A stretch of DNA of 64,000 bases. It comes from Raillietiella orientalis (Eukaryota). The notes beneath the pieces are model-generated. The model did not search any database. It saw only the letters and a list, made by a program, of their open reading frames with translations, and was not told the origin of the DNA. The DNA is taken from assembly GCA_036172245.1 (NCBI GenBank), contig JAYWIR010000012.1:4278001-4342000 (forward strand), written 5' to 3'. Numbering within the stretch: the stretch's first letter is position 1; every line of letters begins with the position of its first letter. Shown piece by piece: positions 17,420-49,444 of this stretch. The translations under genes were made by a program, and so were the position numbers.

Positions 17420-17425
17420 TTTATT
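17420..17425 (-). terminator. Polyadenylation signal of myc copy A
   Basis: AATAAA on the minus strand about 140 nt after the stop, followed by TGTG and a long T run (GU/U-rich downstream element). Confidence 0.6.
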
Positions 17426-17507
17426 CTCAAAAAAATCTATCTTAAGAATATAGAATACACTTTCATATGAAAAAGTATAAATTTCCAAATATATCGATAC
17501 CACAGAA

Positions 17508-17563
17508 TAGATGTGTGCTTTCTTTGCGTACCAGTGAACGTACGCAAAACGTTCCCACATCTA
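17508..17563 (-). other. Stem-loop starting 2 nt after the myc copy A stop codon
   Basis: UAGAUGUG/CACAUCUA (8 bp) and UUUGCGUAC/GUACGCAAA (9 bp) perfect stems, a 7x7 internal loop and an 8-nt terminal loop. Confidence 0.7.
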
Positions 17564-17565
17564 CT

Positions 17566-17958
17566 TTACATATCTTTCGGGCAAGATCGCAAGATATCCA
17601 TCTTCCTTCGGAGGAGAGCGTTCAGTTCCATTTGGCGCCTGCGTTCGTTCGCCAGGAGGTCGTGTTCCCGGCGCAAAGCGCGACAGTTATCAACGGCTCT
17701 ATCCAGAATGGAGGCTTTGGGGGCCCTTTCGGACTGGCTGAGTTCGGGCAGCAGGGCCCGCAGCTTGTCGAAGGCGATACGGAGCTCTATGCGCCGCTGC
17801 CGTTCCAAGGTGTTATGGAAGGCTGGCTTTTTGCGAGGCGCCTTCGCTGGACGCTGCGCCACCTCCTCCCGGCTCTCTATCCGCCCGGGCGCCAGCAAGG
17901 AAGCTTGGGCTTGGTGCAGACGCACTTTCATTACTCGGTTACCGTTCTCAGTGGGGAA
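17566..17958 (-). CDS. myc: Myc (copy A), coding exon 3: bHLH-leucine zipper
   Basis: Follows a 59-nt GT..AG intron (18017-17959, phase 0). Encodes HNTLERQRRIELRIAFDKLRALLP...APKASILDRA...zipper, with the canonical His/Glu/Arg basic residues for CACGTG binding. TAA at 17568-17566. Confidence 0.93.
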   Translation of the reverse strand, partial: FPTENGNRVMKVRLHQAQASLLAPGRIESREEVAQRPAKAPRKKPAFHNTLERQRRIELRIAFDKLRALLPELSQSERAPKASILDRAVDNCRALRREHDLLANERRRQMELNALLRRKMDILRSCPKDM

Positions 17959-18017
17959 CTAATGTTTGATTAAAAACACATAGAGAACACTGCCAAATCA
18001 CAAGGTAATTTCCTTAC

Positions 18018-18151
18018 TTGAATAATGTGTGACGTTGCATTATCATTCAAAATAGTCGCCAAAGCAAGCTGTAGTTTTTTTCTTAGAGGTTCGCTCAGCT
18101 GCGAAAGTTTAATAGCATTTCTCTTATTAGAAAATACATCCGTTTCTTCCT
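18018..18151 (-). CDS. myc: Myc (copy A), coding exon 2
   Basis: Acceptor (T)n-GCAG|AG completes SDS-E-EETDV, matching the Myc acidic EEEIDV motif. The frame is open for 134 nt and ends at donor CAA|GTAAGG; reading on into the intron hits an in-frame TAA. Confidence 0.85.
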
Positions 18152-18289
18152 CTGCAAAAAAAAAAAAAAAAAAAAAAAGTCAAAACATTTTGAATGGTTT
18201 GGGAAATTCGGGGGGCAGCCATGACGGCATTTACGCAAGCACGGCTGCTGCTGCTGCTACTACCACTACTACTACCACTACTACCTAGG

Positions 18290-18590
18290 ATCTTCAGGAA
18301 ATTGCAATACGCGCCAGCCTTGCAAATGCGTGCAAACATGAACGAATGGTCCGCCACAGAAGCAGATGGGAAGAACTACAAGACGGAGCTGCTGATGAAC
18401 GATGCACACAGATAAGCTACGACTGCACTACGCCTGGACAAGACGCTTATACGTTTCCGGTGACCTTCAGGATGCAATCGATAGAAAAATCCTCACAAGG
18501 TTTCCGCGGATCAGATGTACTCGCGTGTACTTGAAAAACTGCATGAAAGGCTACCTATAAGGCTCAGACGTTCAAATGTACTTTAGCAAG
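18290..18590 (+). mobile_element. Possible decayed LINE RT fragment inside myc copy A intron 1 (antisense)
   Basis: GRTTRRSC**TMHT...LYVSGDLQDAIDRKIL resembles GFR.GRSC.D.I.T and L.V..DL.KAFD of non-LTR RT; contains stops. Confidence 0.35.
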
Positions 18591-18753
18591 CGGGCACGTA
18601 CCGGCGCGGAGGAGGAGCGGAAGAAGGAAGGAAGGAAGGGAGGATGGAGGAGGAGGAAGAAGGGAAAAAAAAAGAAAAAAAGGAAAAAAAAGAAAAAAAA
18701 AAAAAAAAAAAGAGGCGCCGCCGCCGTGTTGTCCTCGAGCGAAGCGAACGTAC

Positions 18754-19222
18754 CTGAATCGGAAGGAGTTGGCAACCCTTGGAATGCATACGGCTTTCTC
18801 CTGGAAGTACCATAGCTGTGATCCAAGTGCATTGTATTGGGACTAGGCATTTTCGTTTCCTGAAGTACAGATTCGGAATCACACTCGGGTAAACTGGAGG
18901 GAGGACTGTCTGGGTAGGCGAATTCACTGTTGGGAGTACCAGCTGGATCAGCGAACTCGGAAGTTCTGTTTGGACCATGGTCATGTTTTTGATGATGTTC
19001 TTTGCTAATACAGGAGCCGGACCACATGCAATCGTGTCTGAGTTCGCATCTGATTTCTGGTTCACATTCGCTTGCCCACTCGTGAGACGCGTGTCCGAAG
19101 GAATACGTGGAGCAGTTGTTGTTCGACAGGTCGAACTTCTTCCAGATGTCGTCACTGGGAGTCGCGAACTCCTCTCCCGTGCTGTCGAAGAAGCAGTCGC
19201 CGCTCATGTTGCACAGACTCAT
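18754..19222 (-). CDS. myc: Myc transcription factor (copy A), coding exon 1: MBI core, MBII and start of the MBIII/acidic region
   Basis: ATG at 19222 in a CAAAATG context. Translation contains PSDDIWKKFDL (MBI core, 19159-19127), LRHDCMWSGSC (MBII), LDHSYG and LPTPSDS. It ends at the donor TCAG|GTACGT (phase 1), the intron position conserved in metazoan myc genes. The upstream GTG start in the ORF track is unverified. Confidence 0.93.
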
Positions 19223-19469
19223 TTTGCCAGTGGTGCGCGCATCTCCCTCCGGCCAGCAGCAGCAGCAGCACACACCCACACCTCGCGCGCTCCCGCAACG
19301 GAATGTGAGGAGCGACTGCACGGAGCTTCCACCTAAATGTACCCGCGAAACCGAGTTTACGTGGAATCTTGCGTAGATACATGCGGGGGGTACAGGCGCG
19401 AACCAAAATATCTGTCCGAAAATCGATGTACTCCCTCGCCCTTAACCCTGACGGGAAAAAGCGCGCCAG

Positions 19470-19703
19470 TTCTTCTTCTTCTTCTTCTTCTTCTTCTTCT
19501 CCTCCTCCTCCTCCTCCTCCTTCTTCTTCTTCTTCTTCGGTAATTGTGTGCGCACTCTTTCCCTCTTGAATCAGCAGATAGTAAAGTTTCGTTCATATCG
19601 TACATCGTACTTTCCCGTGCCCACGGACGATCCGTTTTTTTTTTTTTTTCTCCCCCTTCTTCTTCTCCTTATTCTCCCTCTCTCCCTCCCTCCCTCCCTC
19701 CCT

Positions 19704-19776
<73 letters not shown>

Positions 19777-19810
19777 CCTCCCTCCTCTTCCTCTTCTTCT
19801 TCTTCTTCTT
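19470..19810. repeat. Compound microsatellite/polypyrimidine block upstream of myc copy A
   Basis: (TCT)n(CCT)n(TCT)n, a T run, (CCCT)n and a long (CT)n tract are directly visible. Confidence 0.9.
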
Positions 19811-21499
19811 TTGAGCCTGCGTTGGTGTTCCTCTCTCCGCCGTTCCTTCTTTCGCTTCCAGATGCGTTCGAAGGAAAAAAAAAAAAAAAAAAAAAGTCGG
19901 AAAAAAAAATTCTGTGAACGCCCCCGTGTACACTTTATTACCTGTTCGTGGGGATCGTGTGTGTGTTGCAACGCATCACTTCAATGCTTGAAATGGAAAG
20001 CAAGCATTTTTCATCTCCTCTGCTCTTCCTGAGCAGTCCGCGCCTCTCGCACTCACGCCCGAAATTTCGGCCCGATGCGCCTTGCATTTGCAACTGCTCT
20101 GGTTTTCAGAGAAGGCACGGCATTCCACGGATGCCCTCTCTGGGCTGCGAGACCACATCCTCGCCGGCCCTGGCTGGAGGTAGCCGTGTGCCACCGACCA
20201 GCCCGAGCAGCGGGATGGAGCAGCAGCCGACACCGTCTTCGCCGCGAGAAGAAGAAGAGGACGCCGTGAAAGGGTTCGGAGCGACCGATGTCGGCAAAGA
20301 GGGACGGCGAGAGGAGAGGCGCTTATCAGTCGCGACAGCATGGCCTGGACAGAATGCTGTTCGGATGATTCTCTCTCTCTCTCACTCTCTCTCTCTCTTT
20401 TTTTTTTTTTTCCTTTCCTTCCTCTTCCCCCTTCTGTGAACGTCCAAGAAGCGCAGGCAGGTGATTTCCGCGGAAAGCCGGCGGAAAGTGGAGAGAAATC
20501 TCCTGCAGCGTTCCACCCTTTTCGAAACGTGGACAAGTTCAAGCGTGACTCATTTTCCATCGATTCGTTCGATTTGCTGTGGCGTACTCATCGTCTACCG
20601 TCGATGAAAACCCTGCGGTTCGTCTACGGTTTGCATTTCCTCAGGGCAACTCTGTCACCCTTTGCTTTCTTTTTCCTTTTTTTTTTCCCCCCCCCCCCTT
20701 CTTCCTTTTCCTTTTTTTTTTTTTTTTTTTTCGCACGGCGTATATATATATATATGCAGATATTTTCGAAAGTCGCGCAAGTCGCGCAAACAACAACAAC
20801 AGCAGCGATTTGTTCTTCGTAATTAGAGTTTCGCGAAATGCTCGGTTAAAGCGTCGTGGAAACGAAAATCGATTGTCGTTTTCGAACGAAACGCGCGCTC
20901 CGTAACCAACATCACCGCCGAGCAACAGCACACGTGTCTAATTACACTCCCATTGTTCGTAGTTGATTGCTTCCAGCATCGCCGCCGATTGTTGGCGTCG
21001 ACGATTTCAATAATGCGGAATCAACGAATCCGCCGTTCGCGACGCGCGCGTCCAACTCCGCAGGGTTTCACCTAGGCAACCCCCGCGCTTCCCGCCGCCA
21101 CTCTCGCGTATTTTCGGCAGGTTCGCCGGCTCCCCAACCAGCAGCCTCTTCCACGCGGGCGCGTCGGGTCTGCCTCGGCGGGACCACATTCTTCCCCCCG
21201 TCCGCTATGCCAGGAGCTGAAGTGGTGACAGAAGTCGTGGCAATCATCACGTACGATCTGCAGCGATAACCACAGATAAGTGCTGCTCTAGTTGCAGTCT
21301 GACTCTTCCAACTTACGTTTCTAGGTTACCTCGATGAGATGCCAGGGCGAGGAAGCGCGCGCGGGCTCTCTACCCGGGAGCGACGCTCGTCTGGACCCAG
21401 CATCGTCAAAGTCTGGCCAAAACCTCCCCCACCCACCCACCCCACCCCTCCTTCCCTCTGGGAGGAAGGTCCAGTCGGAACTCCACCCCGGGCAGATGA

Positions 21500-21800
21500 T
21501 AAAGCCGGGAGGGGGGGGGGGACGGGGAACCGCCGCCAGAAATGTCTGCGACAGCTACCCCGGGAGGGAGTCTTGCTGCTGATGCACCGGAGACCCCACA
21601 GTTGCCAGCACGCGCTGGTTTTCTCTTCGGGCAGAATCCCACGCCCTATCGGTTCCCAGGTTCGCGGCTCGTGTGGAAGAGAACCCCAGCATCCATTGTC
21701 ATCATGAATGAGGCCGTCATCGTGTGCGAAGAGGAAAGCGTATGAGAAGGGGTCGACTGGCTCTCTCGGAATGCGTCCTGGCACCCGAACGGTGGCGCGG
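21500..21800 (-). mobile_element. Decayed LINE RT fragment (catalytic region)
   Basis: YAFLFAHDDGLIH...TWEPIGRGILPEEKT resembles LFADD...W....GL....KT. Confidence 0.38.
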
Positions 21801-22999
21801 TAGCAGCAGCATGCAACTTTGAGAGAATCTGCAGTCGTTCGGTATCCGAGAGAACTGATGGGCGCTCTCATTCCCCTCCTCCTCCCCCCCTCTCTCTGTC
21901 TCTCTCGTCTTTCTCGGGGGTCTGCTGGTTTCGTCACCGCGAAGATGCATCTCGAGATCGGAAGATGTTTCGAAAATTTCCAGGAGGAGGGGAGGAGCGG
22001 ATGCGAGACGGAAACGGAGGAAACGCAAGATGGTGAAGCTGCCGTCCGTCACCTCTTCCACCGTCACTGACGACGACAGAGACGGGAGCGCGTCCGCCCG
22101 CGAGTAGCACGTGATCGTTTCCTCCCGCGCGTACGAGGACGTGCTTTGATTGAACCGCACGCTTCGCGTCTGTTCGCATGCGCGCGAGCGAGCGAGCGAG
22201 CGCGCGCGCGCGCTGTGTGAAACGCGCGGGAATTCGCGCGGGTCTCCGCACGCATGCCTGGCCCCCGACGCGGAGCGGCGGCGGCGGTCATGCATGAGAC
22301 GGGAAGCTCGGGCAGCGCGGCTGGAAGGAAGGAGAGAACAAGCAACCTGCACGCACGTTCTCCCTTCTCCTCCCCCACCCTTCTCCCTTTCCTCTCCCTC
22401 CCCCATCTCTCTCTCTCTCTCTCTCTCTCTGCCCGTTTCCCCTTTGCAGAAAATAAAAAGAATAAAATAAAACACGAAGCAGACAGCAGCAACGCCAGCT
22501 TCGGGCGTCGCCGCGAAGCTGAGGGATCTTCGCCTCAGATCCGCCTCGCCTCGGAGTCGTTTCCGCGGCGACGCGTCCGAAGTAGCTGAGCGCGTCGGGT
22601 GCCGGCGCCCGTGCGCACGCAGCATCTCGTCGTCCGGAGCGCGCTCACGCGCGCGGGAGAAGGGGGACAGAGGGACCCGATACCCCTTTGCACCCTCCGG
22701 GGGGGAAGAGGGCACTGCCATGTTTTCCCTCCCCGGGAATTGGGTTCGGACTCCGCAGTCCGGACGGGGCAGATGGAAGGGCCTCTCCCCGGCAGGTAGA
22801 GAGCGACCGGCGCGTCGGGAACGACAGGAACCACCTCCTCCTCCCCACTGACCCCTGCGTGCGTCCTTTTCCCGGAGCCCGCCTCGGAGCTCCCCGTGAG
22901 GAGCGGAGGGGAGCGCACCCAGTTCGAGGCCTCCACTCCCCTCTCCTTCCAGCGGACGTGGAATGCGGGGCTGGACGTGGTGCAGAGGAAAAAGGAAGG

Positions 23000-23500
23000 T
23001 GAGGACGCGTACAGTTAGGTCAGGAGGCCGCCTCCCTCCCGTCTCAGCCCTTGAAACCGATGCCAGGTAGCTCCGGCAGGCTTGCTGACCCTTCTATCCG
23101 CCTCCGAAAGGACTAGTAGAGGGTCACCCCTTCGGGGGAGCTCCCGCGCTTGGGGGCGTTCCGAAGCGGCACCCTTCTGGACGGGACTGATTCCTCTGGA
23201 ACCACGGGCAGGAGGGAGGGGGAACCTTCCTTCGCTGTCCCCGGTCTCCAGAGGATCCGGGAAGAGACGGATCGCTCCGGGAAAGGGTCGAGGAGCAGGG
23301 CAGGGGGGGGGGAGAAAGAAGGGAGACATCTTCTCCTCCCCGTTCCGAAGGGAAGGTCTCGCCAAACGGGACCCCTGCCCCCCTGCCCAGATCGTCCTCC
23401 TCCCGGACGTCCTGTCCGGGAGATCCTGCAGAGACGGTGCATCTCCGCAGGGCGGAAGCAGGCGGGAGACCTGGGCCGGAGGGAAGCAGGGAAACTCCCC
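23000..23500 (-). mobile_element. Decayed L1/Tx1-like RT fragment
   Basis: RELPRRGDPLLVL...FQGLRREGGGLLT*LYASS resembles RG.RQGDPLSPLLF...GL...G......LYADD. Confidence 0.33.
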
Positions 23501-26500
23501 CTCCCGTTTTTTTCTCCTCTCAAGGGGGAGAGGAGGGAGACGACAGGCAGCGCTTCGCGGCCGTCTGAGGCGCTGCGAGCCGCTGGATAGGAGAGGGGGG
23601 TGGGGCACCGGAAATCGAACCTCCCATCTCCCCGCGGAGAGCTTACCGGAGGACGCTCCTCTTTCGTTGTCGAGCCGCCCAGCGGGTTAGCCCACGCGTC
23701 CTCAGAGGGTTCTCTCGGCGGCTTTCTGCTCCTGCCCGCAGCGTCCTACAGGGAGGAAGGAGGGAGGAAGAGGGTAGCATCCCCTCCGGGGGTCGTTCCT
23801 GCCCCTTCCCCTCCCTTCCTGCGGCGGCTCAGAAGCAGCGGCGTCGCTCTCCTTCCCGGCTCCAGCCTCGTGGGGAAGCAAAGGACTCCCCAGCGCGGTC
23901 ACCCATTTTTTCCGCTCCGTGGTGGTCCAGGGACGCCCAGCATCACGATCGGCAGGGAGGGGGCTCGTTAATCCCTTCCTTCAAAAAGAATAAGGGCCGG
24001 GGGGAATCGAAATGGAGGAGGGCAGCCGCCGCCTCATCTGCCCTTCGGGAGCGTGCGCAGCACCTTCTCCTGCTCCTGGAGAGAGCGGGCCGCGTGCGGC
24101 GCGAGAGGCGATTCGTCCGGCGGCGGGGCAGGAGCGCCGGGGACGGGAGGCACTAGGAGGGAGACGGGACTGCGTGTCGTGGCCCCCCATCCCCTCCGGC
24201 TTCCCCGCTCGGCATCACTCCCCACGGCGCAGTCTCGGAAGGAGAGCAGCGCGCGCCCAGGCTGCCTCCTCTTCTGGGGCGCGTCCTGGCGGGCGCTACG
24301 TGGCCGCGGACCTCAGCGGGGCGGAAGGGCAGCTAAGACGGCGGCTCTCCCTCCCGCCTCCTCCCAGCACTCGCGGCTTCGAGCGAACCCGGGCGCCGCC
24401 ACCGCCGCCGCTCCGTTGGCGCCCGCCGCCCGCTGCCGAGCGGCGACGCCCCACTTCGATGACGGGGGAAGGTGGGTGGTTCCTCCTGCTCCTATATTTA
24501 ACCGGATCGTTCCCCCCCTCTCTCCCTCCCCCCTCCTCCTCTTCCCGCGTCTTGTTCCGAGCGCGCGTGCTCCGCTGCGGGGAGCAACGATCTCCGCGAC
24601 GGATCGTACCGGGATGCCGCACGTGGCAAGCTGCCATGGCAACGTTAGCAGCGCGCTAGAGAGAGCATCGGCCCAGCATCCCCGCTCTGCGGTACCTTCT
24701 CGGGAGCTGCGGAAGGCGCACGCGCGCGCCCTCCCGTGCCCGGGGATGCCACTTCGGGACGCAGAGCTGTCAATGACCGGCCGGGGCGCGCAAGGGAGGA
24801 AGGGAAGGGAGTGGAAGGGGGGGGGGAAAGGGGCGGGACACCCTCTTTTGGTACTCGAACGTAAGGAAGGCATGGGGTGCGCGGGGGTGCGAGATGAAGC
24901 CGTCCCAGTCCTCTCGGGGGAGGGAAGGCGAGGTGTGCCCCGAGGAGAGGCACGCCCCGCTTGGCCCCGGGGGAGGAAGAGAAGGAAGGGCAGAGAAGCC
25001 CCCCTCGCGGGCGGGCTCAACGGCCTCTCGCGCCTGGAAGAGGGGGCGAGAAAAGGCGAGGGGCTTGCTCGGGGAGCGGGAGCCCACTCGCCGCTCCCCC
25101 TCCACGCGGGCAGACGAGCCCAGAGGCGAGGAGGCCCCGTTGGCGGGCGCGGGGCAGCGGCGGAAGAGCCTTCACCGGCAGGAAGCCTCCAGGAAGCACT
25201 CGCATTGTTGCTGCTTCTTGCGCGGGCGGAGACGAAGCCGGAAGCGAAACAATCAGAAGGGGCGTCAGCCGGAAGGCGGATGCGCAGGAAGCAATTCCGG
25301 TCCCCCCCCCCACTCGCTCGCGCGCGGAAGCCCGGGCGCGCTTTGCTCCTCTGCTTTCACCCCGCGCGCAGGAGCTCTCGGATTTCCAGAGAGACCGCGA
25401 GCCACCCTCGAGAGAGGGAAGGGAGGGGGGGGGTCACCACGACGACTTCCGCCCTCCCCTCCAACCCTCCTCCTCGGCACGGCTGCGCTTCCCCCGCGAG
25501 GTAGAGCAGCGACGCACTCCCGGGTTCCCGCCAGACCGGCGTCGTTCGGCGGGCGAGCAGCAGCAGTTAAGGCCGTTGCTCAGACATGCGCTCTTGGACG
25601 CTCCGGAGCTGGCGACGGAGGTGGTCTCGCGGAGCGGGGGAGGGGAGCGCGGAGAACGCGCGCGCGCGCGCGCGCTGCGGCGAGCACTCCAGTCTCAGCA
25701 GCAGTCGCTGGCGAGGCGGCCGCCACGCGCGACGGTGCGGCCGCGGGTCTCCCGCCGATCCCGCGCCTGACCGAACGCCACCGCCCCGCCGATCCCGACC
25801 TCGGTTCCGAGTGGGGGCTCTCTCCTTAGTGGGGGTGGAGCGGGCCCGTCGCTTCCTCTCATCCTCACCCCTCAACCAGCCGATGAGAAGCGGCGGGACG
25901 GATGACGTCATCATCGAGCGAGACGGCGGGCTTGGGCGACGTGGGGGATCTGTGCTCGAGGCTCCACAGGTTCTCCGGGGGGAGAAGGGGGAGGGGGCTA
26001 ATCGGCGGCGGCGGCGGCCGCACGCCTGCAGCGGTACTGGCAATCCGCACCTACGTGCGCGTTCTTCCTTCCCTCCCCCTTCTCTCCCCTTCCTTCACCC
26101 ACTCCACGCGGTGGGCCACAACCGGATGCCCTCCCTCACATTCGCACGCCTTCCTGTTCCCGGAGGAAGGGGCGCGGACCTGTCCAACTTTCGCGCCACC
26201 TCTTTCGCCTGCGCGCTCTCCGAGCGACCTCTTCGTCCAACCCCTTTCCTTTTCCTGTGCGCCTCTGGCGGCTTCGATGAAGAGTGACGGGGCGGCCCTG
26301 CGTGTTCGACCTCTGCTGCTGCTGGTGCTTTCGCATCTACTGATGCTTCCGCTGCTGGGACTGCGGAAAGCCACCGCTTTTCCGGTCAGCGCGCCGCAAT
26401 GGGGAGCGCGCGCGCGCGCGCGCATCCCACGCGGCTTCCCCCCGGCGCCGCCCGCTTCCTCCGGGCAGAACGAATCGCCACATCCTCCGCGGTCCCCCCC

Positions 26501-26940
26501 GATCCCATCCGCTGCTGGTCGCGAAGCCGCCCCCACCGTCCCGAGTCTGCGCGCGTCCTCCCCCCAGCTGTTTATGGCCGCCCTGCCCGGGACCCGCCGG
26601 GAGCGATGCCGAGATTTTTTTTCTTCCCTTCTTACTCCCCCCCCCTTCCTCCCATTCCCCCCTCGCACCATCGTGACCCAGAAGCGCCTCCCTCGAGGCG
26701 ACCGGGAAACGAGATGGGCAGCAGCTCCGGTCACTCCCAGGAGCGGACCGGGGTGCGCCTCTCGAGAAGCGGGAAAGAGGGGGAGGGGAGGGAGGACCCT
26801 TCCTTTCGGCAGCCTCTCCCCTTCAAGCGCGCACGGTACTCCTCCGCAGGCATCCCTCGTAGTCCTGAGCCCCAGCCCTACCTGTCTGAATAGGGGACCC
26901 TCTCCAGGAGGTTCCCTGCGTACGCAAACGCATTTAGGGG

Positions 26941-27760
26941 TTGTTACCCGGTCACGCCGAGGCGTTTATTGAAGAAAAGCAATAAGCCTATAACTTTTGT
27001 GGTGGGGCGTGGAATCTCTCCCCCTTCCTCCCTGCAACCGATTCTGCAGTGGACCCGTCGGTGCACAGAGTGCCTTTGGCAACGGAAAACAAAGAAAATA
27101 AGATAGAAGAATAAAAGAATAAAAATCTTCGGGAGTGCCGGGAAGGGATCGCAGTCCTCTGGAGGAGTCCTCTGCATCTGTTCCAGGATGCCCTCTAGGA
27201 CCGTCCTTGTACTGTCCAGGTGGGACCATCTGACCGCCGTTTCCAGGAGGTGAACTGCGTCCTCGCTGGCGTCCCTTTCGTCCCTACCTCCTCCGTCGGC
27301 TTCGCTCTAGGCCGCCGCAATCACGCGGACGCAGCTAAGAGCTGCTAGGGCTGCAGAGCGTCCTGGCAAGAAGAGGAGCCGTGAAACGTATCTGGGGGGC
27401 TGCCAACCGGGATCTGGAGGGTCGTTCCCACATCGGCCGGAGGGTAGCGCAATCCGCCAGCAGGCACGAGAAGGGGGATTCCCGTTCCCCGCACCTGCGA
27501 CAGTGCGGGCTCGCCCTCCCCAGCGTCCAGTTGTGTCGGCGCGCGTCGCCGGGGAAACCGCAGTGCAACAGCAGAAGTACCGACTCCTCCGCTCCAGGGG
27601 GAGGGCGCTGCTGTTCTTGCCACTGGGGGCCACTCCAGATCTTCGGACGGAGTGCCGAGCAGCTCGCCCCAGCGCTACAATCCCCGCGGAAGGGCGCTCG
27701 AGGGTCGCGGCGTCCGCCAGCTGTCCCATGGTCCATCCGCTCATCAGCCTCCCTGCCCGC
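26941..27760 (-). mobile_element. Second decayed copy of the same L1/Tx1-like 3' end
   Basis: DARRHNWTLGRASPHCRRCGERESPFSCLLADCATLRPMWER aligns with the 5.3-kb copy, and the terminal AATAAA plus stem-loop is shared. The 5' boundary is approximate. Confidence 0.65.
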
Positions 27761-30700: not shown

Positions 30701-31239
30701 TTTTTCCCCCTTCCAGCCCTCCAGCCTCGTTCGTGTTCGTCGTCGTCAAGGCGACGGTTGCCGACAGTGCTCCCGCGGAGACGAGTTTCCGCAAGGCCGT
30801 CATCATCCTCTGTTAATGGGGACTGCTGGGTTCGGCTGAGACCCCTCCCGGGTTCGGACCCCATTGACTTCCCTCAATTAATGGGGCCAATTTGCACAAC
30901 TGGCGGCTCTGTACCCACCGCATTCCGAACAAAAGGGGTCGTCAAGGAAACTGCCGAGAGAAAGATGCGGCTTTTTCATCTCCCGTGCTCAAGGGACTGG
31001 AGGGGCCCTTTTCCCGCGCGCACCTCTCGCCGGCGCGGTTGGCGCGAAGGGTCGAAGCGCGGGAAGCGCCTCCCGAAAGGACGCCTTCGAGCCGAAGCGC
31101 TCCGGGGACGCGCGCACTCGGGGAGGAGTCCAACTCGGAGGAGGACGCTGCGATCCGGCAGCGACCGAGCGGCTCCGCGCCTCGGGGAAAAGAGGCCACT
31201 CTTCCGCCTGTCCTCGGAGTCCCCGCATCCTTCGGAACA

Positions 31240-31500
31240 GCTCCCCCGTATCCTTTCGCTCGCTCTCCCCCTCGCCCCCTCTCTCCTTTCATGGCTCATC
31301 AAGGGCGGAGAGGGAGAAAGAGTTCAGGAATCTGCAGTTTGGAACATCAAGGTCCAAGTGACTGGGTTTCCATGCCACTTAACCTCTTCGATCGGTGACC
31401 TCCTTCGTCCTCGGGAACAATAGACCTCCATTCGGGGGGTGGGGTGGAGCAGCTTCCACGTCAGTTTCTTATTAAAAGGCTCCATTCGTCGATACTCGAA
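31240..31500 (+). mobile_element. Decayed LINE RT fragment
   Basis: ERVQESAVWNIKVQVTGFPCHLTSSIGDLLRPREQ*TSIRGVGWS resembles DRV.H..LL.KL...GFP..L...I..FL..R.Q.V.I.G..S. Confidence 0.38.
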
Positions 31501-31723
31501 GCGCCACACGCTCCGAGAGACAACTCCCTAATTGCTCCATTTGCAGGGCGACTGCCGTGGTGGGCGGGCAGGCATCCCCGCCATGTGCTGCAGCACAGCG
31601 TGGAATAGGGAGGACCCCTGCGCTTGACCTTTTTTTCCGTCCGCACACGAAAATCTTCGCGGCCCTTTCGCCTGCCAAAGCTTCGCCCTCCGCATTTCTC
31701 TCGATCGCCGGCGCTGGAGTGGA

Positions 31724-32195
31724 GCGCGTTCGATTGTTGCCCTCCCGCCGTCTTCGTAGGGGGGGGGGGAGGAAGGAAGGAGCGAAGCGCGCGTTCGATT
31801 GTTGCCCTCCCGCCGTCTTCGTAGGGGGGGGGGGAGGAAGGAAGGAGCGAAGCGCGCGTTCGATTGTTGCCCTCCCGCCGTCTTCGTAGGGGGGGGGGGA
31901 GGAAGGAAGGAGCGAAGCGCGCGTTCGATTGTTGCCCTCCCGCCGTCTTCGTAGGGGGGGGGGGAGGAAGGAAGGAGCGAAGCGCGCGTTCGATTGTTGC
32001 CCTCCCGCCGTCTTCGTAGGGGGGGGGGGAGGAAGGAAGGAGCGAAGCGCGCGTTCGATTGTTGCCCTCCCGCCGTCTTCGTAGGGGGGGGGGGAGGAAG
32101 GAAGGAGCGAAGCGCGCGTTCGATTGTTGCCCTCCCGCCGTCTTCGTAGGGGGGGGGGGGAGGAAGGAAGGAGCGAAGCGCGCGTTCGATTGTTG
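31724..32195. repeat. 65-bp minisatellite, 7 full copies plus a partial
   Basis: Unit GCGCGTTCGATTGTTGCCCTCCCGCCGTCTTCGTA-G11-AGGAAGGAAGGAGCGAAGC. The CGATTGTTG anchor recurs at 31731, 31796, 31861, 31926, 31991, 32056, 32121 and 32187; the last unit has G12. Confidence 0.97.
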
Positions 32196-33969
32196 GCGCC
32201 TTGGCGCCGGGCAGGAGGCGTCGTCGGCCAACTCCGCTCTCGTGGGGATTAATGGCGCAGAATTTTTTGTGGTATTCGGGCGGGGTGGGGGACGAGCGGC
32301 GAAAAAAATTCCTCCGTCCTGCGACCGTTCCGCTGGAGCAGAGCGGAGGGAGCGCCGGTAGCGGCAGTGGCAGATATGGAAGCGGAAAGGGCGCTCGCTT
32401 TTCCCGGCGCTGTGGTGCACTCCGCAGCGTTCGAGAGACCGGAAAGATTCGTCCACAGGAGAGCGTGCGCGCGCGCTTTTTCACTTCTTCTTCTTCTTCT
32501 TCTTCTTTTTTTCTGCCGGTTGCCATGCAGAGCTTATTCATCTCCCTACCTATCTGTCCGTCTCATCACTGTACTTTGAAAATCGATACGGAGAAGCAGG
32601 AGGCCTCTCTCCCCGGATTAATTCTGCGCCAGGTCAGCCAATCCATCTCGTGCGCGGCCTGCCTCCTGCTCCCGGCGGAAGGTCAGTTCCGCGCGCCCGT
32701 GCACCAGCACTCATCAGCCGCGCAAAAGGGGAGAGAGCCGGAGGCCTCCCGGTGTCCCTTCCTTTTCTTGCCTCGGACAAAAACGAAAACGCTACTTAGT
32801 AGATGTTCAACAAGACATCCGGCGCGCGGTCTTCCTTTCTTCTTCTCCTCTCCTCCCTCTTTCCCTCTCCTCTCCTCGGGAAGAATTTATTGCGGCAGTT
32901 GACAATGGTCGGCCGGAATGAAAGCCGAGCAGCTTCAAACGCTTCCCGGACGCACCCTACTTAACTTTATGGAGCACGCCGAACCGCTCCTCCACAGTGG
33001 CTCGTTTCGGTCGGGGGATCTTCTAGGAGCACAGGCGCCGCGGCGCGCGCCACACGAACGGTTCGTCCCCCGCGCCACCCCCGAAAGGGAGTGCGAGCAT
33101 CATTTGCATGTTTAAAGGTGTCCTGTCTTATCTCCTCGGGACGGAGCGACGAGATGCCACTCTTAATTGCCCTCCTGAGCCGAGCCGACCTCGCGCCGAA
33201 GCACGCGCGCCGCCGCCACGCTGCCCCGGACGCAGGGACCGCTGTCCCCTCCGCCGTCGTCTCGCAAGCAAGAGAGAAGTGGTTGTTGCCCACACTGCCA
33301 TCGAGACGCTTCACCTTCGACACACACACACACACTTACACACACACGCGGAGACAGGCAGAGAGAGAGAGAGAGACAAAAAAAATGGAAGAAGGAAAAA
33401 CCGCATTGTTTCTTTGGCGAACTTATGGGAATTTATAGCCACCCTCGATTGCTTTCCTTTACCAACTTCCTTTATCTTAACACGAATCGTTCGCTCCAGA
33501 TTCGATCGTAAAGAAAAATGGTTCCTGATCATTGTTCTTTTTTCATCAGCCCTTTGCAGCCTTTGTTCGCGAAGGAGAATCCGGGTGTTTTCCACAGTTC
33601 CTCTCTGGGAAAAAGTGCTCTTCCAATAGTTCGAATCTTCCCCTGAATAGGAATGGCGAAAGAAAACAGCGCGGTCGAAGGAAAAACAGCTGCGATCGCG
33701 GCTCATTCAACGCACATTCACGCCAGAAGTGGCGGCGGAGGCTATTTGTCGCTGGGCCGGGCGACGCCGAAGACAAACCCCGGCGGGAGTCGGAGGAGCG
33801 GGCAGGACCGGACGCGATGGCCGAGGTCTCTGCTCCGCCGCCGCATCCCCCGCCGCCGCCGCCTGCTCCGCACGCTGCGTGCCCGTCTGCAGCTGACAGT
33901 TCTTTGAAAACTCAAAGACGTCTTTCGGCAAACCCTTTTCCAGAGGGGGGGGGGGGGGAGCCACCGCTC

Positions 33970-35240
33970 ATCATGTGGTGATGTGACCTTTAACATCTGC
34001 ATGAAGCAGGTAATTAATTGTGAGTTTGGCGAGCAGAGGAGGAGAACGGCCTTCCCGCGCGATGGCAGCGCTCGTACGACGGAGGTGCGCTCCCTCTTGC
34101 GGAGGTGACGATGGCGGCGGCTTTCGCAGCTGGCCGCATTGTTGCGCCCGGTGGGGAAGAGGCTGTCGTTTGCGAGGCGATCGCCGAGGCGACGGGGGAG
34201 GGAGGGAGGGGGGGGGGAGGCTGCACAGCAGCAGCAGCAGCAGCCTTACGGGCGGCGTTGCCGAGCGCGAGGCGGCTCCAGCCGGCTCCGCATCGCGACG
34301 CCCGTCGCACGCCGCCGGTGTCCCACGAAAGCCTGGCGGCTGGCGACGGATGACACGGGGAGCTGCAATGAGCGAGGGTACTCGCAAAAGAGGTACCTGA
34401 AAGCACATCCGGAACAGGAAGACTCCGTAAAGCGGCGCTTGCGAAGAGACAAACAATAAATCAAACGGCGCGGCTCGAGGGAAGAGGAGAAGGAAAGCGA
34501 AGAAGAGCCGGGAGGACGAAGCGATTGGCGGGGGAGCCGCCGCGCGCTTAGCGGGATGACCGCGAGACACATGCGTACGCAGGCGGGTTGCCATGGGAGC
34601 GGGCCGCTCCGCCGCCGCCGCCGCCGCATTGTTTACATCAACGGACAGCTCCGGTTGCGGCGTTGGGTTCGCAAAGACCGGGCTGCTCGGGGGCAGAGAG
34701 GGAGTCTGCTCCGCTGCCGAGGAGGAAGCGGGAGCCGTCCATCATCCGAAAGCAGTCCGTCCGACGAAACAGGATCTGGCCGTCATCTCTTCCGATGCTG
34801 CTGCTGCTCTCTCCGGCCATCCCTCCGCGCGTTCCGGGACGTCCTCTCCCGCGCCGCTGGTGCGGCGGCGGAGCACGGAAGAAACGCCACGCGGGCGCCT
34901 TTCTCGCGCCCCCCTCCTCCGTCCGGTTCTCCCCATTGTTGCTTCCTCCCTCCCTCCCTCCCTCCCTCCCCCTTTCCTTCCCTTGTGGTTGCTCCCATTA
35001 TTAAATTAACCTCGTTGCCTGAAAGCTTTGCTAATTATTAGTTACGTCAAAAATAGGTTGATTTATTTCTGGCTGAACAAACGATTAGAGGAATATTTGT
35101 CTTAACGGAGCGCCGAGAGAAGGAACGACCGTAAATTCGCACTGACGAATGGGAGGAGGAGGAGGAGGAGGAGGAGGAGGAAATCGCTTTTCCTTGCTTC
35201 CCTGATGAAATGCAAATAGCAGGTTTTAATTAATTTTCCC
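33970..35240. promoter_or_regulatory. Candidate enhancer block with clustered transcription-factor motifs
   Basis: AT-richer patches with TAATTA sites, TGATTTAT (35059-35066 and reverse 34456-34463), TGTTTAC (34630-34636), TTACGTCA (35042-35049) and the octamer ATGCAAAT (35210-35217). Confidence 0.35.
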
Positions 35241-38200
35241 CGTTCGACCTACTTCATCAATTCCAGGGTCTCCAGACGCCAGCAACAGCCTTTTTTTTTT
35301 TTTTTTTTCCCTTTTCAATTTTCCAATTAGAGACGATAGCGGCGACTGCGCACGCGCGCGGCGCAAAGTCCGGACGCCGGAGCGCCCACCGCCGCTTCTG
35401 CCCAGGCACCCTCTCGGACGTCCCGAGGCACGCTCCTGCCTTCCTGCTGCTCTGCATCAGTGGCTTGGTGCGCCATCTCGCGTGAAGGGGTGTGTGTGGG
35501 CGGGTGGCGTCCCGCGGCTACCGCGCTGGGAGGATTCGCAGCGCCTGCGCAGGAGTGCGGTGGGCCTGCTCGCACGTACTTCCCCTCCCACGGCGCGCCA
35601 AGATCGGTTTTCCGGGCCACCGGAAAGGACTGCCTCGCTATTTTCCTTTCTTCTCGATCTCCCAAGCGCTGCCCCTCCCCTCCTGCCACGCCACGCCGGG
35701 AGAGGAGCGAACCCTCCCTCCTTCCCGGCGAGCGAGGCACTCGACGAACACCGGAAAGGGTTGCCGTGGTGAGCGGAGGACCGCGTTTACAGGAAGCGGA
35801 AACCCGCTGCCGGGGTCTTCCTTTCGGATGAAGGGGGAGGGAGGGGCGGGGAAGGTCGCGTCTTCAGGCTCGAAAGCCCCCTCGGGATGCTGGAAGCGAC
35901 TTCGTGCCGAAGAGGAGGAGGGTGATCCGTGACTACGGAGACTGGGAATGGACCTCGGAACGGCCACAAAGTCGAAGATGCGCGGCCAGCCGCTTGGGGT
36001 TCTCCGCACTCGAGGTCGCCCCCTTCCGCCTCGATGCCGGACCAGAAGCGCGAGCGAAGTCTCGGTCCTTCCTCCGGGAGGATTCCGCCCCGGATGCGGC
36101 AGCAGGCCATCGGGACGCGCTCCGGTTCCTCTTCTGGACGATGGGAAGAGGCGGCGAGAGCTGCGCGAGTGCGTGCCCTGGAAAGGCGAGGGGAGATCGG
36201 CAGCCCCAAGGCCAGCCGGGAAGCGTCGGGGAGCGTTCCGTGTGTGGGGCACAGCCGCGCGCCCGGACGGGGAACGAGGAGGAAGGGAGGAATGGGAAAA
36301 GTGGGGGAGTAAAGGAGGAAGAAGGGGAAGGGAAGGAGGGAAGATGGGAGGAAAAAAAGAAGGAAGAAGAGGGAGGAGGGGTCGACCTTCGCCTCCAGCT
36401 CCTCCCACCGACTACCCGAAGACGCCTGGACTAGACCCGTCCTGGCCCCTTCGCTGCCGCCCTCGTCGGCCTTCTGACACTCAGGGGGCCATGTGAGGTG
36501 CCCAGTGGCGGCCCTTGCAGGTCCCCCCCGCAGGACACGCACAGCACTGGGTCGACGGCGCCGGCGCTCTCTTTTTTCCCGGCGGGGGGGAGGGAGACCA
36601 GAAGAACAGAGGGACGAAGGATGGGGAGGGGGAGAACCGCAGAGCGCGTGACCATCTCAACAGTGGAGGCGAGCGTTGCCTAGGAACGGAGGACGAAGGG
36701 AAACCGCGCGCGGGGGGTACTTGCCGAAAGCCGCCTGCGGCCCGTCCCGGGAAACGGGACACGTCCTTCCTCGAGGGAAGGGCCGCCGCTCTTTCCCTTC
36801 TCCGGATCCCGTGGGAACCGCGACATCCTGCCGTCCCTCGCGGATCAGCCTCGGGGCAGGGAGGGGGAGGCGGCGCGCTCGAACGGGAGCGAGAGGGCGA
36901 AGGAGCTGCTGGGCGGCGGCGCGCCCCTGGAGATGCCTGGAGCAGCTCGGAACGGGAAGGCTGCCTCCCGGGAGGCCGCACGCTCATCTTCCCAGGGGTG
37001 GCTTGCCTGGCGCCTGGAGACGGGCTGCGAGCGGGCGCAAGAAGGGGAGGGAGGTTGGCAAGGGATGGGTGGCACCGACTCCGAGGAAGGCAGCCCTCCC
37101 TCCCTCCTCCTTTTTCCTCCTCGAGACAGGAGACGAGAGAAGGAGGAGATGGGCGCGCCGACCTGCCTCGACCTCCACCCTCCCTCGACTCTCTCGTTGC
37201 TGCCGCGTCTACAATTTTCCCCTTAACCCCTCCCCCTCGCTCGCGACAGCGCCATCCCGCGGCTCAAGGGTTCTGTCCGAGGGCGGGATCATCGTCGGAG
37301 CCGCCTCGCCACGGTAGCAGCAGCGCCTTCCGCTGCGGCCGCGGCGAATCAAGGAAGTTCCGTCGCCGAAGAGGTCGTGAAACGGAAGGGGGGTGGGGGG
37401 ATAGGGACGGAGTCTCCCTCCCGCCTTTCATCTCTACCCCCTCCACCAACACCACGACCACCATCCTTGCTCCCCCTCCCCTTCCCCCTGTCTCCCCAGG
37501 GGTTCTCCAGGTGCGCGTGGGCATGAGGAGGGAAAGGAAGCGGCATCCCTCCGCCCCTGCCTTCCCGCAGACGGGGGGGGGGGAGAGGAGGGGGGCGATG
37601 CTGCTGCGGCTGCTGCACACGTGTCGGGATGAACGCGCCGTCCAACTGCCGAGCGCCGATAAGATCGCGCCGTTCCGTGTTTTCCCAGCGATAAGGATGT
37701 TTGCCGAATCTGGCGCCAGGGCTCCACCGCGGGCGGAAGTCCTCGACCCGACCGGGAGGCTGCTCCCCCGCGGGAGGAGGAGAAGGGCGCCGGGCGGTGG
37801 TGCGCGCGGACGACCCGCCGCCGTCGCCTCCTGATGCAGCAGCAGCCTCGGTGGGACCTACCTTCCTTCTTTTCCCTCCCACGAGGTCCCACGGACGCCT
37901 CCCCGAGGAAGCAGAGGAGAGGGTTGGAGTGGGGGAAGGAAACGCCCGCTGCCGCGGCTCCTCTCTCCCTCTAGCTCGCGGAAGGAATCCGCGGACGGCG
38001 TCCCCTGCGTCACTCCGCGCCGCTCCCCCCCCCCCCCCTCTTCTGCCGCCGCTCGCACTCCCAACAAGTGGTCCGGTGACTCAGCGCTAATTGGCGCGAC
38101 ACGGGAGGGAAACGGGAAGGAGCGCGCGCGATAATCGGATGGCGTGCCGCAGGAGCGCGAGCGGGAGAGGCCCCCGCCAACAGGCCACTTGGGCGCTCCT

Positions 38201-39273
38201 CTTCCGACCGGGAAAAAGTCCCGTTGTCCTCCTCCTCCTCCTCGCCTCGCGGCTGGTGCGCACCCTTTCCTCATCTGCGCCCCCCGGCACACCCGCGCGG
38301 AGGGGACACCGCTCAACGTGGACCTCAACGCGCGCCGTGATCGGTGGGACCGCTTGGGGCAGGGCAAAAAGTTCCCCGGTCTTCCTGCTGCCTCCGCGCG
38401 CGGCCTGGAACTGCGGCCAGCCGAGCCGGCGAAGACCCCCGGGGGATCTTTCCGGCCTGCCCCGAGCGTCTCCGCATCGCCGCTACGAGGACGGCGCGTT
38501 CCGTTCGGCGGCGGCGGCTCTGCGAGATTTCGTTCCGGCCGCTCCGCATGTCCGCGCGCGCGTACGTCCTACCCGTCGCCTGGAGACGGGAGTCCCGCGA
38601 GGAGGCTTCGCGAGGGGAAAGCTGTTTCTCCCCCTTAAGGGGGAGTGGAAGCTGCTGGGGCAGGAGCACCGCTTAGTTGACGGATCGGGAACAAACGTGG
38701 GGGGAGTCATGGGGAGAGCGTTCAAGGCTGCCGTAGGTTTCGTATTCGCAGCCCGCCCGACTGTTCGCGCGCGCTCCGCAACCATGGCGCCGCGGCGTGC
38801 CGGGCGCCTAGCGACGACGGCGAGCGCCGCGTCTCGCGGGCCGAGAAGCCAGGCGGCTTGGAAGGGGAACAAAAGGCAACGTCCACGGTGGACCTCCCCG
38901 AAAGCCCTTGTTCGCACGCACGTGCGTGTGATGGAGCGCGCGAGTGCCCGCGCACGCGTGATTTTTCCCCCCGAGCCGGATGAAGTGCGAACGCGCGCTT
39001 TCCTCTCTCTGGAGATCCTTCGGAACACGTCCCGCCGCTCCGTGTGCGCAACACGCCTCCGAAATTTCCATACGCTTAATTAAGTTAAATTGCTCCCGGT
39101 GGCAGCCAGCAGTTCTGGCGAAACATCCATTTGTGCGACGTGCGGACAATAGGGGACTCCACGCACACATGGGCTGCTGCGCAGAGCGCCTCTGACGACC
39201 TTTCTATTTATTATTATTATTATTATTTTTTTCCCCAACCTTCTCCGACCCGTGGATCCGGGAAAACGCAGAT

Positions 39274-39309
<36 letters not shown>

Positions 39310-40042
39310 GCTGCGCGCACCTTTTAATAATGGCTTGGAGCCATCGGCGATTGCGGTTTCGCTGGCGCCCGCGTTTATTATGAAGGCAAAGCAGTTTGTT
39401 GTGGCAACCCTTGCTGCTCGCCCCCGGCGAGCGGAAGCGCTTTCCGCACTACGGCGAACCCCGGTTGTGTTTTCCGGAAGATTCGTGACCCCCCCGCCCC
39501 TATCCCTCGCCTTGTTCCGCTTTCCAGCAACCAGAGGTCGGGCTGAAACCGCGACGGGATGCGCGCGGGCTCCCCATTTACGGGGGAATCGTGAGATTCG
39601 TCCAGCCGAAACCTCCGGGCGGGGGAACCTCTGTTCTGGGCTGGTCGCGGGAGCACCGGGGGAGTCTGTCGGATGCGGGAGGGGGGGCACCCGAGCGAGG
39701 GCAGGAGGGCTCGCCACCTCGCCCTTCCTCCCTCCTCCCCCCCTCCGTCCCAGAAGGGGTGCTGCTGCTGGGCCCCCTTCGAACGTGATTCAGGGTCGGA
39801 GAGCGACGGGGATCGACGAGAATCCCGCGCGCACCGAACGGGGGGGCCCTTCTCTCCCGCCTCCCCTTCCTCCTTTCGTTCCCAGTAGTCCGCGTGCGCG
39901 CCCGGCGTACTGCCGTGTTCCCGGAAGGGCTGCTAAGCCTTTTTTCCCGGCCTCCCCTCGCGCACTCTTCCTCCCCGCCGCCTCCCGGCCGGCCCGAAGG
40001 CGCGCGCGAGAAATGCGAACCGCCGGCGCATTGTTTCGGATC

Positions 40043-40076
40043 GTGACGTCACCCGTCCGCGCTCGGTTAAAAATTT
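40043..40076 (+). promoter_or_regulatory. Candidate proximal promoter of myc-like copy B
   Basis: Perfect CRE palindrome GTGACGTCAC (40043-40052), followed by AT-rich TTAAAAATTT (40067-40076) in a GC-rich context, 70-100 nt upstream of the ATG. A second TGACGT half-site lies at about 40135. Confidence 0.45.
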
Positions 40077-40146
40077 CCCGCACGTTCGCCCCGCACTGCG
40101 TCGTGAGAGCGGGGGTGCAGTGCGCTTGCGATGGTGACGTGCCACC

Positions 40147-40860
40147 ATGTGCGACTCGGACGGAGGAGACCCGGAGCGCGCTGGCGCCGCTTTCGGGAGC
40201 GGCGCCTGGGATGAGCGCGACGCGCCGAGCGCCACCCTTCCCCAGTCTCCCCCACCCCTCACCGCCCCCGGCCTCCCGGAAGGGCTCCTGCCCTCGCGGA
40301 CTCGACCCACGAGAGGGTTGCGGCGCCACGACTGCATGTGGTCCGGCTCGTGTCAGAGCCGGGAGCACAGGAAGGGCGCGTTCTCGAGCCCGAACTCCCT
40401 GGACTCGGACCCGGAGGAGGAGGAGCAATCCGCTCCCAGGAAAGGTAGGAAGGCAAACGCTCCGGGGGACGACGCGCTGACCTTCCCGCTCGCAGCCGCG
40501 GTCGCGCGCGGCGGGGCCAGGCGCGAGAGGGCACCCAGGCTGGTGTCGGTGCTCAACCCCAGCGTCGTGGGACGCCGGGCAGTGCACCCGCCGCCCAAGG
40601 GAGCGAAGAGGCACCGTCGAGGGGAGCTGAGGTTGTCCTTCGAGAAGCTGCGCCTGCAGCTGCCGAGCGTCAACCGGAACCCGAGGGCGTCGAAGGCGGC
40701 GATCCTGCTGTCGGCCGTGGGCCAGGTGGCGCAGCTGCGGACCGACAGCCAGCGGCTCTTCGCCGAGGAGCAGCGCCTCCGGGTGACGAAGGACAAGCTG
40801 GAGTCCTCCAAGCAGCGGCTGGAGAGACAGATGATCGATTTATACCACCAGGTGCAGTGA
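40147..40860 (+). CDS. Intronless Myc-like paralogue (copy B): MBII plus HLH-Zip with a degenerate basic region
   Basis: GCCACCATG start with an in-frame TGA just upstream. Contains RHDCMWSGSCQSREH (MBII), acidic DSDPEEEE, HLH ELRLSFEKLRLQLP...RASKAAILLSA and six heptad leucines. Uninterrupted 237-aa ORF. Confidence 0.9.
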   Translation: MCDSDGGDPERAGAAFGSGAWDERDAPSATLPQSPPPLTAPGLPEGLLPSRTRPTRGLRRHDCMWSGSCQSREHRKGAFSSPNSLDSDPEEEEQSAPRKGRKANAPGDDALTFPLAAAVARGGARRERAPRLVSVLNPSVVGRRAVHPPPKGAKRHRRGELRLSFEKLRLQLPSVNRNPRASKAAILLSAVGQVAQLRTDSQRLFAEEQRLRVTKDKLESSKQRLERQMIDLYHQVQ

Positions 40861-41259
40861 TGCCCCCCGCTTCCCCTCCTGATGCCGCCCTCGCGCGCGG
40901 TTTCCGGAACGCTGGGCACCTCTCTGGAACGCCGCAGAGGGAGACTTGTCGCGTCCATTTCCTTCCCTCCCTCTCCTGACTTGGCTCCTGGAGCTCAGGC
41001 GGCGGCGGACCTGACCCCTCCCTCCCCCCTCCCCGTGGCAAATCCTGGCGGGTCCAGACGGTAAGTGCAGTGCCGCGTCGTGCAGGAAAGACAGCAGGGC
41101 GTCGCCCCCAGAGAGCGCACGCGCGTGCGCTCTCGACACGGTTCTCGCGGGGTAGGCCGCCGCCGCCGCCGGAGTCACACGGCGCGGGAGCGAGTGCAGT
41201 AGCCGGGGAAGACGGGCCGGCGCTCCCCCGTGTCCCGGGACTCTTCTCCTGGAGAGGCG

Positions 41260-41265
41260 AATAAA
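41260..41265 (+). terminator. Candidate polyadenylation signal of myc-like copy B
   Basis: First AATAAA after the stop (400 nt downstream), followed by GTGTGTTTTTTTT about 50 nt further on. Confidence 0.5.
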
Positions 41266-46268: not shown

Positions 46269-46298
46269 CTCGGCCTTTTGGCTAAGATCAAAGTGTAG
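46269..46298 (+). pseudogene. U2 snRNA 5' fragment
   Basis: CTCGGCCTTTTGGCTAAGATCAAAGTGTAG matches the conserved U2 5' region (stem-loop I up to the branch-point recognition sequence), then diverges abruptly. Confidence 0.88.

Positions 46299-49395: not shown

Positions 49396-49444
<49 letters not shown>

Follow-up and report, generated by a model that had tools for sequence, protein, structure and literature searches.

A Myc paralogue with an altered DNA-reading region beside a canonical Myc gene of Raillietiella orientalis, a candidate competitor for Max

Two divergent Myc-family genes and the basic region of gene B

We analysed a 64,000-nucleotide stretch of the genome of Raillietiella orientalis (assembly GCA_036172245.1, contig JAYWIR010000012.1, positions 4,278,001 to 4,342,000; hereafter the window), which contains two Myc-family genes in divergent orientation, gene A on the minus strand and gene B on the plus strand. 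The start codons lie where a preliminary description of this DNA had placed them, at 19222 (-) for A and at 40147 (+) for B, and are 20,924 bp apart. That description had assigned both genes to the Myc family, which is borne out by their Myc boxes and by PDB matches in which Myc ranks first. It had further ascribed to A an intact basic region, which is present as HNTLERQRR, and to B a broken one next to a preserved Myc box II (MBII), helix-loop-helix (HLH) and leucine zipper, a picture that the sequence and the alignments confirm. The coordinates of all features are collected in Table 1.

The start codon of gene B is embedded in the context gccaccATG and is preceded by an in-frame stop three codons upstream. 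The MBII peptide is identical to that of A despite three synonymous codon differences, and 15 of 24 residues are identical over the MBII region common to both proteins. MBII of A and B aligns with that of insect, fish and reptile Mycs and of two full-length Myc transcripts, L001 (451 aa) and L002 (481 aa), which were found in a metagenome scan seeded with B peptides. The acidic SDPEEEE run after MBII is continuous in B, and in A an intron interrupts the corresponding place. All four heptad d positions of the B zipper are occupied by Leu (204, 211, 218 and 225). Pfam Myc_N (PF01056) gave no match in B, and no stretch resembling Myc box I (MBI) was found by tblastn in the B open reading frame (ORF) or upstream of it. 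We also considered whether B might form part of a larger, multi-exon gene and rejected this, as tblastn revealed no upstream MBI-like exon, the in-frame stop precedes the start codon by three codons and Myc proteins terminate just past the zipper.

The basic region's His/Glu/Arg triad makes base-specific contacts in basic helix-loop-helix (bHLH) proteins (PMC7226237, in excerpt). In the relic basic region of B a run of three prolines (Pro148-150) is found, Asn is replaced by Lys151 and Glu by Lys154, while Arg155, Arg157 and Arg158 are kept. HMMER alignment with human MYC pairs KRHRR of B with ERQRR, and MAFFT treats the prolines as an insertion after His in B and pairs KGA-K with N-x-x-E. The E-box-contacting Glu is Lys154 under both alignments alike; the triad His is, depending on the alignment, lost to substitution or separated from the helix by the three prolines. 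AlphaFold2 predicts two helices for B, comprising residues 151-171 and 183-236, with a pLDDT (predicted local distance difference test) of 88-98, and disorder before residue 151. At the bHLH-leucine zipper (bHLH-Zip) columns conserved in at least 80% of 12 Myc-type sequences B keeps 19 of 21 residues, a count biased towards B seeming conserved, as the 12 sequences are matches found with B itself. The two losses, Asn (Lys151) and Glu (Lys154), are DNA-facing, and from Arg155 onward all 15 conserved columns are kept. An N-myc-like lemur protein in the sequence library (P0013) reads R-N-V-M-E-F-Q-R-R and lacks the His, which may point to a further altered copy of Myc or to an annotation artefact.

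We then modelled B residues 138-237 in complex with residues 15-110 of human MAX, which served as a stand-in for the protein of this species; the model, in which solved Myc-Max structures may be remembered, scored 0.74, compared with 0.00 for the best of three controls. Of the solved complexes, 51 of 78 reach the mark applied to such models, as do 2 of 108 mismatched pairs; on eukaryotes the figures are 39 of 65 for solved pairs that have no like older complex and 2 of 126 for unrelated pairs. Contacts agreed between runs to at least 97%, the pLDDT of the partner was at least 82, and the predicted interface extends over helices 1 and 2 and the entire zipper. The model lends support to pairing with Max without demonstrating it; what its pass shows is a likeness of B to Myc, not binding of its own Max. 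In human MYC, Glu417 and Arg424 at zipper a positions block homodimerisation, and the MBII Trp is critical for binding of TRRAP (PMC7226237, in excerpt). At the two a positions, numbered by the HMMER alignment to human MYC, B has Glu and Lys.

Family membership, age and possible maintenance of gene B

In the PDB, B matches Myc at E-values of 1.4e-7 to 1.6e-6, compared with 0.59-1.2 for Max, 2.2 for Mad and 0.43 for USF2. An HMMER search with B of a library of 1.84 billion representative proteins returned 19 matches at E<=1e-3 (best 8.4e-7, none at 1e-10). By our own reading 16 of the 19 have either Myc boxes or a bHLH-Zip of the c-Myc type, and the remaining three (P0003, P0014 and P0018) are other or unassignable bHLH-Zip proteins; among ten matches looked up, five are named Myc by their sources. 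We place B in the Myc family because Myc ranks first among its matches and because it carries MBII. A grouping of B outside Myc, which the preliminary description had named as an outcome that would speak against its view, is not what the PDB ranking and the five named matches indicate. Arg at position b10 is the criterion for Myc, Max and Mga and Lys that for Mxd and Mnt (PMC3177325, in excerpt); both A and B have Arg. Although c-Myc of reptiles and birds heads the library matches of B, an origin of B by vertebrate contamination or gene transfer was rejected, as identity is only about 39% and MBII is of the arthropod type and identical to that of A.

No close relative of A or B was found in the 1.84-billion-representative library. 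Word-indexed protein searches gave nothing for B (near lengths) or for exon 3 of A (longer lengths, and near lengths at E<=10), and the ESM Atlas returned generic HLH clusters only (scores 0.82-0.86). Within the HLH 26 of 57 residues (46%) are identical between A and B. Trees of the bHLH-Zip (15 rows and 87-88 columns, with no Max, Mnt or Mxd rows) are largely open, at 8 of 12 and 9 of 12 inner branches, and the best tree joins A with L001 and L002 at a support of 72/95, which is not decisive. A clade of A, B, L001 and L002 is not rejected (p 0.156). B is probably an old duplicate or a fast-evolving one and not a recent copy, because an exclusive clade of A and B is borderline disfavoured (p-AU, from the approximately unbiased test, 0.052). 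Compared with the metagenome Mycs, which were found via MBII, B is the more distant of the two, with 21 of 88 residues identical against 34-35 of 87 for A. In a relative-rate count B-only changes were fewer than A-only changes against 11 of 13 sequences. We dropped this count as evidence because the sequences had been picked as matches to B, and because B is more distant from the metagenome Mycs.

B is without introns; in A, one intron follows TPSDS and a second comes 45 codons further on. No marks of a processed copy were detected at B, where neither an A-run after the AATAAA nor flanking repeats (self-blastn) are seen, although an old event could have lost them. With only 21 kb between the genes, the position of B is unlike the unlinked one expected of a processed copy.

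Among the 223 stop-to-stop ORFs of at least 150 codons in the window, B has the strongest codon periodicity, with a GC content of 0.69/0.55/0.87 at codon positions 1, 2 and 3 (GC1, GC2 and GC3). The difference GC3-GC2 is 0.31 for B and averages 0.004 for the other 222 ORFs (standard deviation 0.059, maximum 0.169), which places B about 5 standard deviations above the other long ORFs of the window; the maximum among these belongs to the antisense ORF over B itself. As a more general observation, GC by codon position, and not an open frame, separates genes from chance ORFs in very GC-rich DNA. In a 46-codon ungapped block of the HLH GC2 is 0.457 in both A and B, GC3 is 0.70 in A and 0.94 in B, and the A-B differences at codon positions 1/2/3 number 21/15/30. 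For this block the NG86 method yields 0.58 nonsynonymous (dN) and 1.67 synonymous (dS) substitutions per site and hence a pairwise dN/dS of about 0.35, which sums both lineages and has a dS near saturation; it differs from the ratio near 1 that the preliminary description had regarded as damaging to its proposal. Judged from its sequence, B did not arise as an ORF by chance, nor does it have the appearance of a decayed copy.

Gene A and the surrounding window

Gene A encodes a protein of 331 aa in three coding exons on the minus strand, or of 327 aa if the in-frame acceptor at 17946 is used. It had been seen in the preliminary description as two blocks; both blocks are real, but joining them in frame requires the third, 134-nt middle exon. 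All junctions are GT-AG, the first combining AG/GTACGT with a T-tract-CAG acceptor and the second CAA/GTAAGG with TTAG. As blastp with exon 2 yielded no significant match to either of two insect-type Mycs, its assignment is a prediction from the splice signals and from frame closure. Exon 1 has colinear matches to whitefly Myc P0015 and to L002. Only the DIWKKF half of MBI is seen in A, and the downstream Thr/Ser-Pro degron typical of this box is not recognisable. With Pfam Myc_N (PF01056) exon 1 scores 15.3 bits, below the gathering cut-off of 24.4, in a model that we judge to be mainly of the vertebrate type. Exon 3 matches Pfam HLH at 9.2e-13, and its best PDB match is Myc (1.5e-9) ahead of Max (3.7e-8). 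Leu occupies three of the four heptad d positions of the zipper, the second being Gln.

The Myc ORFs of L001 (18-1373) and L002 (152-1597) are the closest relatives of A found. Exon 3 and L002 share 35 of 79 residues (E 5e-22), and MBI and MBII match as well. Like A, both transcripts lack Leu at the second d position of the zipper. No B-like gene was seen on the L001 and L002 contigs. Because of its Myc boxes, its intact basic region and its matches to and grouping with L001 and L002, the predicted product of gene A is the ordinary Myc of this lineage.

Table 1. Features of the Myc locus, in positions of the window
Feature	Positions	Strand	Basis and remarks
Gene B, single intronless ORF	40147..40860	+	237 aa and stop; Pfam HLH 6.5e-6; codon periodicity
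Gene B MBII, residues 60-69	40324..40353	+	RHDCMWSGSC; peptide identical to MBII of A
Gene B relic basic region, residues 143-158	40573..40620	+	RRAVH-PPP-KGAK-RHRR; canonical H-N-x-x-E-R-x-R-R
Gene B HLH (residues 159-195) and leucine zipper (196-232)	40621..40842	+	alignments, AlphaFold2
Candidate core promoter of B	40044..40081	+	TGACGTCA 40044-40051, TTAAAAAT 40067-40074, TTTCCCGC 40074-40081; 66-103 nt before the ATG
AATAAA past B	41260..41265	+	400 nt after the B stop, then a GT/T-rich run; only plus-strand AATAAA in 34455-45832
Interval between start codons	19223..40146		20,924 bp; GC about 0.56-0.71; unique sequence; no Pfam-supported ORF; 65-bp minisatellite inside
Gene A coding exon 1	18754..19222	-	ATG at 19222; 156 codons and 1 base; MBI, MBII, DHSYG...TPSDS
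Gene A MBI core, residues 25-30	19133..19150	-	DIWKKF; sequence, Myc alignments
Gene A MBII, residues 62-71	19010..19039	-	RHDCMWSGSC; Myc alignments
Gene A coding exon 2	18018..18151	-	134 nt; poly-T tract and CAG acceptor before; starts with EEETDV acidic motif
Gene A coding exon 3 with stop codon	17566..17958	-	bHLH-zipper; alternative in-frame acceptor 17946
Gene A basic region	17791..17817	-	HNTLERQRR; His/Glu/Arg triad intact
AATAAA, likely poly(A) signal of A	17420..17425	-	about 140 nt past the A stop

The GC content of the window varies between 0.46 and 0.71 in 2-kb bins and is about 0.69-0.71 around gene B; the CpG observed/expected ratio is about 1. Only 21 kb apart, the two genes differ markedly in composition, A lying in an island of 0.48-0.56 GC with a GC3 of 0.57 (16000-21000) and B in DNA of about 0.70 GC with a GC3 of 0.87 (38000-44000). 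A Pfam scan of 282 stop-to-stop ORFs of the window (161 of at least 170 aa and 121 of 60-169 aa with less than 45% A/G/P/R/S) found none beyond the B ORF and exon 3 of A that passes the curated cut-off. When GC was compared between codon phases in a sliding 240-nt window, the phase contrast was highest at B (0.575) and reached at least 0.27 elsewhere only at exons 1 and 3 of A, at a GAG repeat near 35.15 kb and at 59.7-59.9 kb. In tblastn with Myc proteins the window showed the two known loci only and no third copy. By these three scans, which short exons of other genes could escape, the statement of the preliminary description that A and B are the only two supportable genes holds. Rfam gave no match in the window, and self-comparison showed little repetition beyond a 65-bp minisatellite in the A-B interval (31724-32195, 7.2 copies, 99% identity).

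In the A-B interval, self-comparison and motif counts revealed nothing specific to shared regulation. The window contains 17 CACGTG sites, compared with 7.2 expected from dinucleotide shuffles, none of 100 of which reaches 17. This excess was rejected as a regulatory signal, since the sites are evenly spread and the interval, which makes up 33% of the window, holds 6 of the 17. GAA/GAG-type runs and a (TCTCCCTC)n repeat are located at 19470-19800, just upstream of the A start, and a (GAG)n run at 35150-35180 within the interval mimics coding periodicity. Beyond B, a block of lower GC content (0.46-0.53) at 46000-52000 contains many AATAAA sites and no Pfam-supported ORF.

Upstream of B, TGACGTCA is one of four such sites in the window, where 0.48 are expected, and these are spread over the window. 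The E2F-like TTTCCCGC was rejected as a promoter signal, as it occurs at chance level. A promoter role of the TGACGTCA, TTAAAAAT and TTTCCCGC sites can only be inferred from the letters. A short upstream ORF (40131-40214), which lies in a different frame and has its ATG at 40131, overlaps the B start codon and is relevant only if transcription starts upstream of this ATG. About 60 nt past the AATAAA downstream of B, a T-run is directly followed by a long G-run (41321-41346).

Possible roles of gene B and comparison with known systems

A possible mode of action can be outlined for B. The protein would pair with Max through its HLH-zipper, and because a B:Max dimer would contain only one working basic region it could not clamp a CACGTG E-box. 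B would withdraw Max from A:Max and from other Max dimers, and its MBII may in addition withdraw TRRAP-type cofactors. It would then be an inhibitor of the type of Id and Extramacrochaetae (Emc), built from Myc, that lowers the pool of DNA-competent Max dimers. That B antagonises A is suggested by analogy with such inhibitors, and we infer that B is expressed and perhaps co-regulated with A.

We give roughly even odds to the view that B is a selectively maintained Myc paralogue that is unable to read E-boxes and probably acts as a competitor for Max or for cofactors. The fuller proposal, in which B is a naturally evolved dominant-negative Myc that has been maintained, sequesters Max and possibly TRRAP-type cofactors, and stands beside the canonical Myc as one half of an activator/decoy pair, is put forward tentatively. 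Several points weigh against the view of B as a maintained paralogue. To the limits stated above for the count of conserved columns, the pairwise dN/dS and the B-MAX model are added features of the gene and of its distribution: an open frame by itself is uninformative in this DNA because 240-codon ORFs are common at 70% GC, the first 58 codons of B are without periodicity (0.74/0.71/0.78), MBI is absent, no orthologue of B was found among the 1.84 billion representatives or in the metagenome scan, and the loss of the basic region could also match the early decay of a copy.

Alternatively, B may be a dead or dying copy, unexpressed or recently inactivated, whose frame is still open since stops are rare at 70% GC and whose broken basic region is the first visible lesion. 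The lack of an orthologue, the many long ORFs of the window and a short protein without MBI and with an aperiodic start would all fit. We nonetheless consider such a copy unlikely, as the periodicity of B lies about 5 standard deviations above that of the other long ORFs, 19 of 21 conserved positions are kept with only DNA-facing ones lost, and the MBII peptide has stayed identical to that of A through synonymous changes. Moreover, B contains no frameshift or stop though its HLH is only 46% identical to that of A. Recent death after a long functional life may apply.

B might instead be a working transcription factor with a changed DNA preference, which as a B:Max dimer or a B homodimer would use KGAKRHRR on a half-site or a non-E-box sequence and bring MBII cofactors to other genes. 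Arg155, Arg157 and Arg158 and the strongly basic stretch are kept, as is the MBII activation box, and the modelled helix covers residues 151-158. We regard this as rather improbable, given that the triad Glu is Lys, that the His is split from the helix by three prolines and that bHLH dimers with one defective basic region are generally unstable on DNA. Quite improbable, finally, is an action of B without Max, either by pairing with A or another zipper protein of the Mnt/Mlx type or as a pure decoy for MBII cofactors, which would suit the kept MBII with its TRRAP-critical Trp but not the Glu and Lys that B has at those zipper a positions by which human MYC is kept from homodimerising, nor a B-Max model that passed its controls.

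The proposal that B is a Max-pairing competitor can be set against known systems. Canonical arthropod Mycs are represented by the Myc-A-like proteins of Cimex (P0002) and Bemisia (P0015), and Drosophila dMyc is a further example. Gene A has the same order of parts, with MBI, MBII and its HDCMW-G-C-x-x-x-H extension, DHSYG...TPSDS, the acidic run and a bHLH-Zip with HNxxERxRR, and differs in being short (331 aa), in having no recognisable MBI phosphodegron and in the Gln at one zipper d position. What B has in common with these Mycs is the arthropod-type MBII and the HLH-Zip; it differs in that it has no MBI, no triad Glu or Asn, the three prolines in its basic region and no intron.

The principle proposed for B, that an HLH without a working basic region titrates its partner, is that of Id and Emc (bHLH group D). 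These proteins are without zipper and Myc boxes and target class I/II bHLH proteins rather than Max, whereas B is Myc-derived, with a long zipper and an Arg-rich remnant. Id/Emc-type proteins have neither basic region nor zipper, so that B lies outside this type and the likeness is one of proposed mechanism only.

Myc:Max is known to be held back by the Mxd/Mnt repressors, which retain E-box binding, and by designed proteins such as Omomyc, which keeps its basic region and occupies E-boxes as inactive dimers. The preliminary description had held that the usual Myc antagonists are Mxd/Mnt and not Myc-derived. This is tempered by rodent B-Myc and Hydra Myc3, two Myc-derived proteins that have been suggested to oppose Myc and that do so through different truncations. 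Like B, Omomyc is a Myc-derived bHLH-Zip, and as a designed dominant negative it interferes with Myc:Max (PMC3284561, in excerpt); it is man-made and altered in its zipper, whereas B is natural and altered in its basic region. Rodent B-Myc, for which the excerpt of PMC3177325 describes loss of the whole bHLH-Zip and inability to bind DNA or Max, is the converse of B. S-Myc of rodents and L-Myc2 of primates are, as B-Myc is, extra Myc-family genes from lineage-specific duplication; they are intronless like B and interact with Max (same excerpt). A further difference is the short distance of only 21 kb between B and A. Hydra Myc3 is, like B, a divergent invertebrate Myc paralogue, and it has been proposed to counteract the canonical Mycs; according to the excerpted text of PMC10177328 it lacks the N-terminus and the Myc boxes and binds Max and the E-box efficiently, whereas B keeps MBII and has lost E-box reading.

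In literature and motif searches of the open-access library, no natural Myc paralogue turned up whose basic region is selectively disabled. If the proposal for B is true, it would represent a different kind of Myc:Max brake, in which the parts for Max pairing and cofactor binding are kept and only the DNA-reading residues are lost. An inhibitor of the Id type would then have evolved within the Max network, and its sequence would offer a natural way to block Myc by titration. B would also be a natural counterpart of Omomyc and a Myc-derived equivalent of Id.

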